Of a stretch of 64,000 nt of DNA, positions 2,080-64,000 are shown in pieces. Under the pieces are notes generated by a model. The model was given only the letters and a program-made list of their open reading frames with translations. It did not search any database and was not told the DNA's origin. The stretch's first letter is position 1. Each line of letters begins with the position of its first letter. Source of the stretch: Escherichia phage Mimir124; the sequence record PQ310662.1; one strand, given 5' to 3'. The position numbers and the translations under genes are program-made.

Positions 2080-2556
2080 ATGAACTGGAATGACTTGTTC
2101 ACATACAGCAATGGTGCTCTTTACTGGAAAGTATCTAGAGGCCGTGCACTAGCTGGGGCTGTTGCCGGGAGTGTGGACAATAGTGGATACGTTAGAGTCA
2201 AATGCTTCAAAAAGATGTACTTGGTTCACCGTATAATCTATGAAATGGAAATCGGCCCAATCCCTGATGGCTACCAGGTAGACCATATTGACCATAACAG
2301 GTTAAATAACTACCCAAGTAACTTCCGTTTAGTCACCAATTTAGATAACTGCCGTAACCAAAAGAAAAGGATAACCAATTCTTCTGGTATTACAGGAGTC
2401 TATTGGCACTCCAGAGATGAAATATGGGCTGCTTCCATAAATGATAATGGTAAGCAAATTTATTTAGGAAAATTCCCTAGTAAAGAAGAAGCTGCTAAAG
2501 CCAGGAAAGAGGCTGAAAAGCTTATTGGTTACCATAAAAATCATGGAGCACCTTAA
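2080..2556 (+). CDS. HNH homing endonuclease with C-terminal AP2-type DNA-binding domain (copy 1)
   Basis: HNH_3-like motif YQVDHIDHNRLNNYPSNFRLVTNLDNCRN and AP2-like SSGITGVYWHSRDEIWAASINDNGKQIYLGKF..EEAAKARKEAE. Confidence 0.7.
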   Translation: MNWNDLFTYSNGALYWKVSRGRALAGAVAGSVDNSGYVRVKCFKKMYLVHRIIYEMEIGPIPDGYQVDHIDHNRLNNYPSNFRLVTNLDNCRNQKKRITNSSGITGVYWHSRDEIWAASINDNGKQIYLGKFPSKEEAAKARKEAEKLIGYHKNHGAP

Positions 2557-12956: not shown

Positions 12957-13436
12957 ATGCATAATTGGAATGAAATACTTACCTACTCTAACGGTAAGCT
13001 GTACTGGGCAATAAAACCGAAACGGGGTACACAAATAGGTGACCCCGTGGGAAATCCGAATAAAAACGGGTATTTACGTTTTCAATATAAAGGAAAACAT
13101 TATTTAGTCCACCGCATTGTGTGGGAAATGCACTATGGAGAAATACCCATGGGAATGCAGGTAGACCACATATGGCATAACAAGCTAGATAATAGGATAG
13201 AGAATCTTAGGTTAGTGACTCCTCTGGATAACCAGAGAAACAGAAGTAAAGCTCCAAAAAATACATCAGGAGTTACAGGTGTATGTTGGAGCAAACCAAG
13301 TGCTAAGTGGTTAGCGAGTATAACTGTTAAGGGTATTCGTAAACACTTAGGAATGTTTGACAATATAGAGGATGCTGCAAAAGCCCGTAAGCAAGCAGAA
13401 TTGCTTTACGGATTCCATCCTAATCACGGTAAATAA
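12957..13436 (+). CDS. HNH homing endonuclease with AP2 domain (copy 2)
   Basis: Same architecture as 2080..2556: NWNEILTYSNGKLYW, MQVDHIWHNKLDNRIENLRLVTPLDNQRN, SGVTGVCW..EDAAKARKQAE. Confidence 0.7.
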   Translation: MHNWNEILTYSNGKLYWAIKPKRGTQIGDPVGNPNKNGYLRFQYKGKHYLVHRIVWEMHYGEIPMGMQVDHIWHNKLDNRIENLRLVTPLDNQRNRSKAPKNTSGVTGVCWSKPSAKWLASITVKGIRKHLGMFDNIEDAAKARKQAELLYGFHPNHGK

Positions 13437-52684: not shown

Positions 52685-52945
52685 TTAAACAGACTGTTTT
52701 AGTGCAGCTTCTGCTTCTGCAATGGGATTACCAGAACCAGAATAGGTAAAGGGGAATCGGTTAGCACTACCCTGCTTACCGTCTATGGTAACAAGGTACT
52801 CTGCTACACCATCATTACCAAATAAGCTGACAATACCCTTAACATCAAAAGTTGCCGTAACTTGTTCCATGACAGAGTCAGAGATTACATTGTACTCTGG
52901 GTAAGAACTTTTTTTACTAGTATTAATTTGCTTAGTAAAAGACAT
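52685..52945 (-). CDS. hypothetical protein
   Basis: 86-aa ORF downstream of tail fiber gene. Confidence 0.35.
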   Translation of the reverse strand: MSFTKQINTSKKSSYPEYNVISDSVMEQVTATFDVKGIVSLFGNDGVAEYLVTIDGKQGSANRFPFTYSGSGNPIAEAEAALKQSV

Positions 52946-52953
52946 AAATAACC

Positions 52954-55320
52954 TTAGCTGGATGCCAGCACTTTATTTGCTATAAGAGAAGCAATCAACG
53001 CATTAACGGCCACAGAAGCTGGGTCAGTACCTGTACTTGGAGTTACTGCTGCTCCCTTAGTGACAGGACCTACTACTATGACACCAGACGGATTATCTGA
53101 TGTTGGTTTGTTAGAGGACAGCCTCAAGTAACCATCAGAACCTACCCAGCAATAATACCCATTAAGGATGATATAGCCATCACGATAATCCCCAACGTAA
53201 GCAGTTCCTCCCTTCTGCCTTGACCCAATCCAACCCGAACCAGCAGACATAGTTTTACGGAGTTGGTTACCCTGCATACAAGGGTTGGTCACATTAGAAG
53301 ATAGGACCACAGACTGAGATACAGTAGGTCTATCCATACAGCCTGCCCCAACTATTGGGTAGTCTTCCTGAGACAGCTGCATAGTAATGGCATCCGTAGA
53401 TGTAGACAACCCATTAATATTATAGAGATTATTGCTACCAATAGTCTGAGCTGCACCTGTAACGGGGTTAGTGGTCCCAGCACCTGTACGGAAAGCGATG
53501 TTTATACTACTACCAGTACCTACACCTGTGCAGGTAATATTGTACGTAGAATCAGAACCACCCAATTTCAGGCCAGACTTACATACGGCAGTTACGATAC
53601 AACCAACCAAATCTCTCAGCTCTATTGCATATTTAGCTATACTAATTCCAGAGAACACAGTAGTAGAGCAACCTTGTAGAAAAGTCTGTCCACCAATTAA
53701 CCCATCTACAACAGAATCACGCAATCCGTATAACCAGATACTACGAAGCACCGTAGACCGAGATGGTTCCACCCGAATTCCCTGTATAACCATATTTCTA
53801 TTGGGTACATAGTAAGGAGTAAAGATGGCATCTACGTAGAAACCGTAGTTACCCTGAGAACCAGTGGCATTCGCATCTTTGGTTGAGATTTTACCAATCA
53901 CCAGACCGGGGGAACTCATTACCTTGAATACAGCATTATCGGTAGTAGAGCTAGAACCAGATAAAGTCACACTATCTATAATTGAGTGACCGAATACATA
54001 AGTAGTATTCATACTGGATGGTTCATACGCACCTAACACATTATTGTTAGTAAAATGAAAGTTATATAAGAAGCTGTTAACAGATCGCCCAATAGTAACA
54101 CCATCTACCTTAACCCCAGCAGATTGTCTAATCTCCAATCGTTTTATATAACCAGCCCCTACGATTGAGACATTTTCAATGTAACCAACTTTAGCAATCC
54201 AAGGGTTAACATGAGTAAATTCCAACCGCTTATCCAGAACAATACTGGTAGACGTAATGGACTTAACTCGAACCACTTCGAAGTAGGCAGACTTGGCCTC
54301 TACCCCATCAGTACCATCAGTGTTCTCAATACGCAGTAAATCATTTACTGCGAATAGGGCTGTATAATCCCCCGGTATAGTATAACCATCTGATGACAGA
54401 GTACCTGTGTACTTGACGGCAGACTTGAGAATGGAGATTACAGGTTTCTGGTAAGGGTAACGAAGACCGGAACTCAAGGTAAGAGATGAGCTGGACGCAG
54501 CAGCTACAGTAGCAATATCAGAGCCAATTTCATTACCCTGAGAGGCACTACCTCCGTCAGTATCGTTAAGACGTACTACAACAGTGTCTCCTACGTTAAA
54601 ATCCAGAGCATTACCCTGAGAGGCACTACCTCCGTCAGTATCGTTAAGACGTACTACAACAGTGTCTCCTACGTTAAATCCAGAGAAGTCACCAGATAAT
54701 ACTGTGGTTCCTGCTGGGATATCTGACCATGCAGCGTCACTGTTTACTGTCCTTGTAGTGGAGAAGTACTCGCCTTTAACAATTACAGAGAACTGTAAGT
54801 TAGCATTCTGATTCAGCTGGATACTAACGCTTTTGTCAATGTTAAGTGTGTTACCTATGTAATTACCAGCTGGGAAAACCAGAGGCCACTTTTTAGATAT
54901 TGCAGCATTGGCAGCTAATAGTATTGCAGCAGTATCGTCAGTAACACCATCCCCTTTAGCCCCATACATTTGAGGAGTAACGTAGTTAAGACCACCGATA
55001 AGGGATGTTCCTGTCAGAGAAGACAGAGCATCTGCTAACCAACCCCCAGGTTGAGCCTTGGTTAGTGTAAATTGTCCAACATCTGTAGTAAGAATCAGGG
55101 AATCAGACGATACTGACCATGCTACAGGAGTACCTGTGGCGTTACCCGTAAACCAACAGGTTTCAGTAATTGGGTCATACAAAACTGTATACCCATTCAC
55201 AGGTGAATGCTTATTTATATAACCAACAGCAGATACAGCAATGCCAAGCATCCTGGCTATGGCTTGCTTGTTGGTCTGTTTAGCCACTGGGCCAGTAGGC
55301 TGAGTAAACATCTTATTCAT
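52954..55320 (-). CDS. tail fiber / tail appendage protein with internal 26-aa tandem duplication
   Basis: 788 aa, Gly/Ser/Thr/Asn-rich beta-rich sequence; contains FNVGDTVVVRLNDTDGGSASQGN twice. Confidence 0.5.
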   Translation of the reverse strand: MNKMFTQPTGPVAKQTNKQAIARMLGIAVSAVGYINKHSPVNGYTVLYDPITETCWFTGNATGTPVAWSVSSDSLILTTDVGQFTLTKAQPGGWLADALSSLTGTSLIGGLNYVTPQMYGAKGDGVTDDTAAILLAANAAISKKWPLVFPAGNYIGNTLNIDKSVSIQLNQNANLQFSVIVKGEYFSTTRTVNSDAAWSDIPAGTTVLSGDFSGFNVGDTVVVRLNDTDGGSASQGNALDFNVGDTVVVRLNDTDGGSASQGNEIGSDIATVAAASSSSLTLSSGLRYPYQKPVISILKSAVKYTGTLSSDGYTIPGDYTALFAVNDLLRIENTDGTDGVEAKSAYFEVVRVKSITSTSIVLDKRLEFTHVNPWIAKVGYIENVSIVGAGYIKRLEIRQSAGVKVDGVTIGRSVNSFLYNFHFTNNNVLGAYEPSSMNTTYVFGHSIIDSVTLSGSSSTTDNAVFKVMSSPGLVIGKISTKDANATGSQGNYGFYVDAIFTPYYVPNRNMVIQGIRVEPSRSTVLRSIWLYGLRDSVVDGLIGGQTFLQGCSTTVFSGISIAKYAIELRDLVGCIVTAVCKSGLKLGGSDSTYNITCTGVGTGSSINIAFRTGAGTTNPVTGAAQTIGSNNLYNINGLSTSTDAITMQLSQEDYPIVGAGCMDRPTVSQSVVLSSNVTNPCMQGNQLRKTMSAGSGWIGSRQKGGTAYVGDYRDGYIILNGYYCWVGSDGYLRLSSNKPTSDNPSGVIVVGPVTKGAAVTPSTGTDPASVAVNALIASLIANKVLASS
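54533..54688. repeat. tandem direct repeat, 2 units of 78 bp (first 68 bp identical) inside tail fiber CDS
   Basis: TTACCCTGAGAGGCACTACCTCCGTCAGTATCGTTAAGACGTACTACAACAGTGTCTCCTACGTTAAA at 54533-54600 and again at 54611-54678. Confidence 0.8.
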
Positions 55321-55372: not shown

Positions 55373-58168
55373 TTACATAGCTTCCGTCCTAAAAGTAGGA
55401 GCTACATAGCTAACTGCACCATCTGTTACAGAGGCGTCACAAGCTACATCAACCTTAATAGTAGTACCTTGTATGTCCAAGACTCGTTTGCTACCAGAGA
55501 CTCCGGCTATAGCTATAACGCAACCTCTATACACATTAGTAATGTTATTAAGAGTAACTGTTTTACTACCTGCTACAGTAGTACCTGTTACATCGTTTAA
55601 TGTACCAAAGGTTCCGTCGGTTAGGATAGTGTAGCGATTCCCACCAACGTAATCAGTAATGGTACTGCTGGCATAGTGAGTACCGGCATTAGGTGCTCCA
55701 AGCTTAGTCTTACCTATACCTTTATAAGCAGCAGAACCTGAACCGATGGCAATGTTGTTATCGGATTGGTTTGCTTCAATAAAAGACAGTGGACTAACGT
55801 TGTTAACCAAAATCCCTTGTCTTGCCGGTAAGGTATCACTAATAGCCTGACCCCTTACCTGATTACCCACCAACTCTAAGATGATGTTGTAATCGGACGG
55901 CCTAACCAGAATACCGTTAGGAAGCTGTCCCAGGTTAGGGGATAAACCATAACCATCAATCGTATTATAAGAAATCTTAGCTCTCACCTTAGAGAAATCC
56001 CCTGTAATTGACCCACTTACGTGGTCTAGGTAGATTCCTCCAGAGTGCGAGTTAAACATCCTGTTATCTGTGATTTCCAGATTATTGTCACATTGATGAA
56101 TACGAATAAATGGTCTGCTACCCGTAAGGGATAGTGGGGCATCCTTAAAGGTATTACTGTTGATAAACAGGTTAGAGAACCTTTTGTAGTTATCCTGCGT
56201 AACAGCAGCTACACCGGAACCACACTCACTAATCGTGTTATTGTAGATGTGGATGTTATCAATACTAGCCACAGAGTTTTGAACGGTATCATCGGGCCAG
56301 AAACGTAAACGTACACCACCGGCAGTATTGTTAGTTAACTCAAGACCAACGATATTATAAAACTCGTTATCAGATATTCGCACATTACGTACGTAAGAGT
56401 TGTTAAGCGAGTTCTTATCATTGGTCAGATATACACCACCTTCATGCCCATGCTTAAAGATGTTCTTTTCAATGATAGCCCCATCTACATAACTGTAGAG
56501 TTTAATAGTGCCATGTACTCTGTTAATACGGTTGTTAATAAAGTTAATGTTCGAACAAGGGAACAGTGGGTCAAAAGAACCAGAAGATAAGGCATCATCC
56601 CCGATTTCTTCAATTACGTTATTGTATGCCCATACGTCAGTGCACTTGTAGAAGTGCATCCCATCCGAGCCTGCTTTTGGAGAAGCATACGTACCCTGGT
56701 GATAACCAGCGTAGGAATCTCTTACAGTAACTCGGTTACAGAATACAAAAAAGATACCGTAACCGATGGCGTTAAGTTCCTTAACATCCTCCATTAAAAA
56801 CGGAGAGAAGTTGCCAAAGGAGAAACTCTTAGGTCCAGACGAGCTAGGTCCATTCAAATAGTTAGGACGAACACAGCCACAACCCTTTAGCTTACCTGGG
56901 TATTTAGTAACGCTGTTTGTCTCAGGACCAAATGTCAAACCTGCCGATAAGTGGTCGTAAACAAAAGTAGTTAGCTCGGAACCAAGTCCCTCGAAGCTTA
57001 CTGCCCCATTGCCTAAAGTTACTGACCGGGTTAGCCGATACTTTGCTGGTTGCTTCTCCACGATAGGCAGGCGAGTGGAAAATACCCGTAGTACTGCATC
57101 GGTATCGTCAGCACCAGTGATAGTAGTTCCACTAATGGAGGCATTACCAATTGCCCCACCATCTTGCATGCAGATGCCATTTCGAACATCCCGTGCCCAA
57201 CCAAATGAGTTATTAACACGGAAGAAGGTAACACCGTCATCTGCTCGGCTAGATGAGCTAATGCCTATAAGCATGCCACCACCCAAACCAGAACCTTCTG
57301 CATACTCTTTAAGGAAAATTCGCTGACCAGCTACGCCAGGTATAGTACGTAATGTGTCTACATCTTTACACTGACCAATTAGCTTTAAACCATCATAGTT
57401 TGCAAAGTCTGTTCTTACGTTAGCTACACTTTCTTGCAGGCTGTCTAAAGCAGCTTGTACAGTTTCTCCAGACTGGGTGCCAATGTTAGATGCACCATCG
57501 CTATTCTTGAGTATGGCGAAAACATCCACATCCAAATCTGGGTCAGTTATACCTATAATAACGGTAACCAGATTACCAGCTTCCAGAGAGTCAGCTAATG
57601 TGATTGTAGCTGTGCCTTCATTGTAGGAGAAGCCTTCATTGTAGGAGAAGCCTTCATTGATGTCCTGTCTTACACCCTCCACGTAAATGGTCTGCACTCC
57701 AACAATTGGAATATCCGTGGGTAGCTCTATCGAAGTAATGCCATCAGCCTCAGCCCGATACTTCCAGATACGCACGAAAGATGCATTAGAGCCGGTAGCT
57801 TTCGTACTTAACCAGGAACCAGTTGCAGTTGGGTCATTTGATGGGATACCAGTAGTATCGTCTGCTACATACAGGTAGTCAGTGAAGTAGTACCCAGCCG
57901 TTTCTGATTTATTGTATACGCGAGCGAACTTACCAATAGATAATGGGATATCCTTGATTGCATCCTCACTGTCTACAGTAATAATCAGACCGTACTTCTG
58001 TAGGTAGTTATAGATGTAGGTAAGGTTACCTAATGCAAGGTATACCTCTTTAACTACGTGGTAGGCATCACCAATGATACGGTCTACTAATTGGTCAGCA
58101 GAACGAAAATCATTGGTGCACCCACCGTCACCACCAGTGTTAAACGGGTTATGAGAATTCATATCCAC
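55373..58168 (-). CDS. tailspike with right-handed parallel beta-helix (candidate polysaccharide depolymerase)
   Basis: 931 aa; repetitive N-x-x-I/V turns (NNRINRVHG, NVRISDNEFYN, IHIYNNTISE) typical of pectate-lyase-fold tailspikes. Confidence 0.5.
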   Translation of the reverse strand: MDMNSHNPFNTGGDGGCTNDFRSADQLVDRIIGDAYHVVKEVYLALGNLTYIYNYLQKYGLIITVDSEDAIKDIPLSIGKFARVYNKSETAGYYFTDYLYVADDTTGIPSNDPTATGSWLSTKATGSNASFVRIWKYRAEADGITSIELPTDIPIVGVQTIYVEGVRQDINEGFSYNEGFSYNEGTATITLADSLEAGNLVTVIIGITDPDLDVDVFAILKNSDGASNIGTQSGETVQAALDSLQESVANVRTDFANYDGLKLIGQCKDVDTLRTIPGVAGQRIFLKEYAEGSGLGGGMLIGISSSSRADDGVTFFRVNNSFGWARDVRNGICMQDGGAIGNASISGTTITGADDTDAVLRVFSTRLPIVEKQPAKYRLTRSVTLGNGAVSFEGLGSELTTFVYDHLSAGLTFGPETNSVTKYPGKLKGCGCVRPNYLNGPSSSGPKSFSFGNFSPFLMEDVKELNAIGYGIFFVFCNRVTVRDSYAGYHQGTYASPKAGSDGMHFYKCTDVWAYNNVIEEIGDDALSSGSFDPLFPCSNINFINNRINRVHGTIKLYSYVDGAIIEKNIFKHGHEGGVYLTNDKNSLNNSYVRNVRISDNEFYNIVGLELTNNTAGGVRLRFWPDDTVQNSVASIDNIHIYNNTISECGSGVAAVTQDNYKRFSNLFINSNTFKDAPLSLTGSRPFIRIHQCDNNLEITDNRMFNSHSGGIYLDHVSGSITGDFSKVRAKISYNTIDGYGLSPNLGQLPNGILVRPSDYNIILELVGNQVRGQAISDTLPARQGILVNNVSPLSFIEANQSDNNIAIGSGSAAYKGIGKTKLGAPNAGTHYASSTITDYVGGNRYTILTDGTFGTLNDVTGTTVAGSKTVTLNNITNVYRGCVIAIAGVSGSKRVLDIQGTTIKVDVACDASVTDGAVSYVAPTFRTEAM
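57614..57659. repeat. 18-bp tandem repeat, about 2.5 copies, in tailspike CDS (encodes EGFSYN repeats)
   Basis: CCTTCATTGTAGGAGAAG x2 then CCTTCATTGA. Confidence 0.7.
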
Positions 58169-63525: not shown

Positions 63526-63742
63526 CTGCTTATAATTAGGATAGCTATCATATTTTTGCATACCATTTTGGTCATAGCTATGTATAGCTACAGTGGTGGT
63601 GGCTAGGGCTACACCCTTACACTCAACCATCCCCCCCGGTATGTTGACGGTGTAGCCACTACCCTACCCCACCTTACACGTTACACATGCTCCGCATGTT
63701 ATGGACATGTCGTCCTATCATCAACTATTGGAGCTATCATCA

Positions 63743-64000
63743 TGACTACTACCGCTTCTGTACGTATGACCGCAGGAACTTTACTTGGTACTGTTAACTC
63801 AGCTGCTACTACTGTTGCAGATACCTTCGGTACTGCAACTAAAGCAGTAGGTATGCTTAATTCATATGTTAGTACTATGGCAGAGAAACAGGCCATCCGT
63901 ACTAAATTAGAAATGCATACCTTTGTTAATAAACTGGCAGAGGAAACAGCTATGAACGAGACTCTGCGTAAGAAAAGTATCGAAGATTTCTGCAAGGATT
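63743..64000 (+). CDS. 5' part of a + strand gene running off the window end
   Basis: ATG at 63743 opens a frame with no stop to the window end (MTTTASVRMTAGTLLGT...); absent from the ORF track because it is incomplete. Confidence 0.4.

Follow-up and report, generated by a model that had tools for sequence, protein, structure and literature searches.

A frame-compensated tandem repeat in the tailspike gene of Escherichia phage Mimir124 resembles an untrimmed assembler overlap

Closest described systems

The receptor-binding apparatus of the Gamaleyavirus phage G7C is branched (PMC6872550), with gp66 as its long anchored spike and the O-antigen deacetylase gp63.1 as its short branch spike. For Escherichia phage Mimir124 (record PQ310662.1) we analysed a stretch of 64,000 nucleotides, referred to here as the window, which is 91–96% identical in nucleotide sequence to, and collinear with, Gamaleyavirus genomes (G7C-like, N4-like Schitoviridae). 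The order of adaptor, long anchored spike and short branch spike is the same as in G7C, with the tailspike gene located downstream of the adaptor gene and the long spike (55373-58168). At DNA level, similarity of the tailspike gene to other Gamaleyavirus genomes is limited to its initial ~80 nt. Window positions 63599-64000 are matched at the left end (1-402) as well as at the right end of phage 24-32N, indicating that the last ~400 nt are a direct terminal repeat.

Whereas G7C gp63.1 is a deacetylase, the head of the Mimir124 tailspike resembles P560dep, the depolymerase of Klebsiella phage P560 (K47 capsule; PDB 7VUL), in both sequence and fold. A phmmer comparison with 7VUL aligned residues 131-753 (E=4e-157), identity to P560dep is ~43% over residues 149-752, and the AF2 model of the tailspike superposes on 7vul_B with a target-normalised TM score of 0.89 (Foldseek E=1e-52). 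7VUL is given as a lyase in a review, its structure paper and the P560dep active site being unpublished (PMC11652154). The two proteins differ in their anchors, which are of the Przondovirus type in P560dep and a G7C-type branch module in Mimir124; P560dep also lacks a 35-aa C-terminal helical extension and holds the segment described below in a single copy. The anchor module of Mimir124 recurs in many tailspikes of Klebsiella and E. coli phages that are unrelated in other respects, and tblastn matches from many phages are confined to the first ~115-230 residues. PF12708 gave a weak match to residues 119-168. As judged from sequence and modelled fold, the tailspike is an unexceptional P560dep-like depolymerase, with putative activity, on a G7C-type branch-spike scaffold.

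The C-terminal extension (~35 aa, residues 753-788; 53062 down to 52954) has a predicted helix at its end (residues 767-781). It is present in most of the closer relatives and missing from the Przondovirus K47 depolymerases (P560dep and P0012) and from two others. Module swapping is exemplified by P0071 (825 aa), a member of the cluster of the nearest relative, in which the same depolymerase head is carried on a different, longer N-terminal anchor, with the anchor/head boundary near residue 110. Directly downstream of the spike, on the minus strand, lies an 86-aa ORF (phrog_7836; 52685-52945), which occupies the same position in two metagenome contigs carrying this module (L003 and L004). In Klebsiella phage RCIP0012, an unrelated phage of 160 kb, the ORF coming after the homologous spike has 53% identity to this one, and spike and ORF seem to travel as a two-gene cassette.

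The tailspike gene contains a tandem repeat that can be compared with two described classes. It is similar to slipped-strand duplications in its head-to-tail, in-frame result, but differs from them in having no flanking microhomology and an internal 1-nt indel; an NEGFSY unit in the neighbouring spike fits that class exactly. The other class originates in assembly. With reads of ~150 nt, the default top k of the SPAdes assembler is 77. SPAdes contigs carrying the same 77 bp at their two ends, with genes spanning them, have been reported (PMC9409062), as have artificial overlaps of 127 bp at SPAdes contig ends (PMC5923482). Repeats of ~79 bp were found in short-read assemblies of seven out of ten phages; most were artefacts by Sanger sequencing, one was stated to be internal to the genome and outside the DTR, and frameshifts in tail-fibre genes were edited manually (PMC10438801). 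Routine removal of such overlaps is described in a 2026 preprint.

The Mimir124 repeat shares with these circular-contig overlaps (77 or 127 bp) its length of exactly 77 nt, the identity of its copies and the lack of microhomology at its borders. In the textbook case, however, the product is 77+77 and frameshifted, while here one copy carries an extra T, measures 78 nt and leaves the gene in frame. The extra T is the one respect in which the repeat departs from the documented SPAdes overlap artefact. A real event would be a tandem duplication of a familiar, ordinary type, and neither reading is categorically new.

Anatomy of the repeat

TRF identified one array, at 54531-54685 (period 78, 2.0 copies, 98% matches, 1% indels, score 301). 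A repeat search of the 64-kb window returned two 70-nt stretches, 100% identical and spaced 78 nt, and this was the sole direct repeat of at least 30 nt; the longest exact repeat in 10 shuffles of the window measured 14-17 nt. The tandem repeat is thus present in the sequence, far above chance level. An earlier note on this DNA had recognized the repeat and placed it at 54533-54688, which is 2-3 nt off, and had counted 68 identical bases; this number has to be replaced by 70 consecutive bases at period 78 and seven more at period 77. The features are collected in Table 1.

Table 1. Coordinates of the tailspike gene, its modules and its repeat in the window
Feature	Position	Strand	Description
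Tailspike / putative polysaccharide depolymerase gene, 788 aa	52954..55320	-	ORF; place of G7C gp63.1, branch receptor-binding protein
N-terminal anchor module, aa 1-90	55051..55320	-	PHROG tail-spike families match aa 1-90
Enzymatic head, aa 131-753	53062..54930	-	Homologous to K47 depolymerase P560dep
Repeat copy 1 (coding strand)	54609..54685	-	77 nt, CTCTGGATTTAAC...GGTAATG; ancestral T3 run
Repeat copy 2 (coding strand)	54531..54608	-	78 nt, the same 77 nt plus one T
A4 run on plus strand (T4 on coding strand)	54598..54601	-	T3 in copy 1 and in L003/L004

On the coding strand the region reads ...GACTT(CTCTGGA TTT AAC...GGTAATG)(CTCTGGA TTTT AAC...GGTAATG)AAATTGGC..., with each copy in parentheses. 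The seven bases preceding the 70 identical ones, CTCTGGA, are identical at period 77 and not at period 78, and the eight junction bases, taken at period 78, match neither flank. Taken together, the 70 nt at period 78 and CTCTGGA at period 77 show that the duplicated unit is exactly 77 nt. The copy-copy junction in the record is GGTAATG/CTCTGGATTTTAAC (longer context ...CAGGGTAATG/CTCTGGATTTTAACG...), where a single-copy path would read GGTAATG/AAATTGGC (longer context ...CAGGGTAATG/AAATTGGCTCTG...). Apart from one T the copies are identical at 77 of 77 positions. Neither border of the unit shows microhomology, and the flanks of the array do not extend the repeat on either side.

The extra T sits in a T-run 7 nt beyond the junction, where TTT becomes TTTT in copy 2, and converts a frameshifting gain of 77 nt into an in-frame gain of 78 nt. 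With 77 nt alone, the ORF would meet a stop at codon 243. The full ORF is rescued by a +1 insertion at just 21 positions, from -4 to +16 about the junction, and the T-run is the only homopolymer inside this rescue window. Copy 1 encodes ..SGFNVGDTVVVRLNDTDGGSASQGN and copy 2 encodes ALD-FNVGDTVVVRLNDTDGGSASQGN, so that residues 215-237 are repeated exactly as residues 241-263 (23 aa, FNVGDTVVVRLNDTDGGSASQGN) with a new three-residue linker, ALD, between them. The linker arises from CTCTGGA: copy 1 translates these bases as ..S-G, and copy 2, with the added T, as A-L-D.

The 788-aa ORF is open throughout, and the in-frame tandem duplication that had been described within this tail protein is confirmed. 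The clean 78-bp unit proposed for it holds as a net gain of 78 nt and fails as a description of the copies, whose structure is 77+1. This structure had been missed, and it is incompatible with a single clean in-frame duplication. The protein does gain 26 residues, of which the exact repeat accounts for 23 and the ALD linker for three.

The segment is present in a single copy in 14 of 14 aligned homologues (43-99% identity). Thirteen of these have no indels in the repeat region and the other (P0009) has a one-residue gap. The nearest relative (P0001) measures 762 aa, which equals 788 minus 26. In its 90% cluster eight of nine members are 762 aa long, the other one (825 aa) differs in its N-terminus, and all nine are single-copy. 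The ENA metagenome contigs L003 and L004 contain the same module, also single-copy, at 99.5% DNA identity, differing from the window gene minus one copy at 12 of 2289 nt. Two of the 12 differences lie inside the unit, where both window copies share the same alleles, and copy 1 is otherwise equal to L003. A real duplication would consequently be younger than the divergence from L003. The earlier description of the duplication as recent is therefore borne out if the event is biological, given the identical copies that both carry the two SNPs relative to a 99.5%-identical single-copy relative.

The comparison with relatives that the earlier note had proposed thus shows the duplication to be private. 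Searches of 50,697 phage records with megablast and tblastn, and a protein search, gave no second occurrence; the source record is not part of that phage collection, in which backbone identity peaks at 92-96%. An exact-protein look-up gave no exact match on record for the 788-aa protein, and pattern scans of viral, metagenome and genome collections did not find the junction in its T3 or T4, 77 or 78 versions.

In an AF2 model of a single-copy relative, residues 220-225 of the segment (TVVVRL) are a confidently predicted beta-strand, after which comes a loop of low confidence (230-237, pLDDT <50). The loop is Gly/Ser-rich and holds the invariant family residues G-S-A...N-E. In 7VUL the segment corresponds to residues 150-172. 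When the 788-aa protein was modelled, copy 2 took the native place and copy 1 (215-237) was extruded as a disordered loop with pLDDT <50. This argues against the earlier suggestion that a change in copy number would lengthen or shorten the fiber, as the segment is a strand and a conserved loop in a globular enzymatic head and not part of a shaft. A duplicated stretch that contains a loop can, in principle, be accepted by the fold as an extension of that loop, and the structure predictions favour neither a real duplication nor an artefact. A repeat of the beta-helix rung or shaft type was rejected, the models placing one strand and one loop ahead of the main body of the helix. A possible more ancient duplication within this subdomain (GDFSGF..NDTDGG versus GDYTALF..NTDGTDG) was also discarded, with no BLASTP alignment between the two.

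Origin of the duplicated segment

The unit length coincides with an assembler k value (77, among 55, 77, 99 and 127), and we lean towards the explanation that the duplication is an assembly artefact, an untrimmed k-mer overlap that would not be present in the phage DNA. An artefact had been offered earlier as a fallback; it is plausible and can be given a specific mechanism, the unit being exactly as long as the 77-nt SPAdes end overlap (PMC9409062). A de Bruijn assembler with a top k of 77 would have emitted the circular-looking phage genome as a linear contig with its first 77 nt repeated at the end. The contig would then have been closed and rotated to the conventional G7C/N4 order with terminal repeat, the overlap being left untrimmed. 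Where the untrimmed ends met, an exact 77-nt tandem duplication would have resulted, by chance within the tailspike gene. The extra T would hold the ORF open and the error would go unflagged in annotation; the T itself may stem from a manual frameshift fix or from a junction-linked polishing or consensus error. Which assembler was used, that the ends were joined untrimmed and how the extra T arose are all inferred. Since the record carries the terminal repeat in the conventional order, the genome was probably re-oriented after assembly.

The lack of border microhomology in combination with exactly 2.0 copies fits an end-to-end join and is less typical of slippage. Indeed copy identity, private status, the exact length of 77 nt and the missing microhomology all fit an artefact. 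A 26-aa insertion at the invariant G-S-A...N-E loop, in a nearly length-invariant region, would be unusual for a real gain.

The main obstacle to assigning a pure artefact is that the two copies are not strictly identical (T3 versus T4). A pure k-mer case would yield 77+77 and a broken frame, and a T within the 21-position rescue window needs an ad hoc second step. A random homopolymer error is disfavoured as its source, as none of the ~55 window genes matched to 24-32N proteins is frameshifted. Polishing or consensus misalignment, which we worked through by hand, is a weak candidate: aligning true reads (GGTAATG-AAATTGGCTCTGATATTG) to the false junction gives a change more complex than one T. 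The otherwise clean assembly also speaks against an artefact more generally, and a random contig break would fall in one of the two receptor-binding genes only ~7% of the time.

A real, very recent duplication private to the isolate, in which 77 nt were copied a second time through an illegitimate template switch or through strand slippage, is a serious possibility that we nevertheless judge somewhat improbable. The frame would have been repaired by a +1 slip in the T3 run, whether during that one error-prone event or later as a suppressor, and the spike would have gained 26 residues in total: the TVVVRL strand and the GGSASQGN loop once more, plus the ALD linker. In the models these residues could form an enlarged loop of the depolymerase head, either neutral or altering substrate or host range, and the low-confidence loop at 230-237 could take the insertion in this way. 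The intact ORF and the position of the T inside a narrow rescue window are as selection demands, and the window is free of other frameshifts. Receptor-binding genes retain such changes, and the two SNPs relative to L003 found in both copies fit an event after that divergence.

Against a real duplication, the coincidence of its unit with the SPAdes overlap length is estimated at ~1-in-25 to 1-in-100. Two events, or one imprecise event, are needed, at borders without microhomology. Perfect tandem repeats are known to be unstable. In a two-step scenario, a precise 77-nt collapse should beat a +1 suppressor by orders of magnitude. Moreover, no other assembly shows the duplication, and it copies an invariant motif at a place where relatives are nearly length-invariant.

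A real 77-nt duplication could also have inactivated the spike, truncating it after 242 aa with the anchor kept, if the T were a sequencing error or an edit. Removal of the T does expose the stop at codon 243, and G7C-type phages have a second particle-anchored spike (PMC6872550), which might allow a branch-spike null to persist on some hosts. This would require a rare real event of exact k-mer length together with an error at precisely the position that masks it, in an assembly without other indel errors, and we consider it very unlikely.

Less likely still is a programmed or high-frequency variation in copy number, a phase-variable or minisatellite-like switch of the receptor-binding protein, for which the location in a receptor-binding gene is the one argument. 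There are just two copies, all relatives examined have one and no intermediate alleles were seen; the T-run is merely 3-4 nt, and the segment belongs to a folded enzyme head and not to a repeat-built shaft. On the grounds of the single copy in all relatives and the short T-run we rejected such a switch.

The partner spike and the genome background

The gp66-like long spike (931 aa, minus strand) that neighbours the tailspike has a private in-frame 18-nt tandem expansion of its own (57603-57659, residues ~170-182), reading NEGFSY NEGFSY NEG where L003, IME11 and 24-32N have NEGFSY NEG. The 18-nt NEGFSY unit is flanked by the 9-nt direct repeat AATGAAGGC, and from this arrangement the expansion can be assigned to the classic slippage type. 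It cannot be a k-mer artefact, which means that real duplications arise in this module in this lineage. The presence of this change, with its 9-nt microhomology, in the partner of the tailspike supports a real duplication and counts against an artefact. By position the expansion corresponds to the gp63.1-binding, T4 gp10-like region of G7C gp66, which comprises residues 138-294 (PMC6872550). The +1-rescued 77-nt duplication and the 6-aa expansion of the partner spike might accordingly be real and selected, reflecting a very recent co-adaptation of the branched complex, for example in a host-range shift; we regard this as unlikely.

Expressed as likelihood ratios, which are our own rough judgement, the coincidence with a k-mer length favours an artefact by a factor of ~25-40 and the lack of border microhomology by a further factor of ~2. 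The location in a receptor-binding gene and the neighbouring duplication favour a real event by ~5-7. The extra T is roughly neutral, as either account needs a rare second step.

If the repeat is an artefact, the record is wrong by 26 residues in the main host-specificity enzyme, and depolymerase engineering, structure prediction and host-range inference would be misled. It would also illustrate that an untrimmed k-mer overlap evades annotation checks when the frame chances to hold. If it is real, it offers a modest but clean case of a receptor-binding protein gene whose duplication was compensated in frame, alongside a duplication in the partner spike.

Elsewhere in the window, an extra 158-aa ORF (2080-2556, plus strand) is located between the ATPase gene and a VWA/metallopeptidase-like gene. 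Like a second region at ~13008-13409 (plus strand), it has ~30% identity to an HNH endonuclease of 24-32N, and both HNH-like regions are missing from the equivalent sites in that phage. The two are probably insertions of free-standing homing endonucleases.
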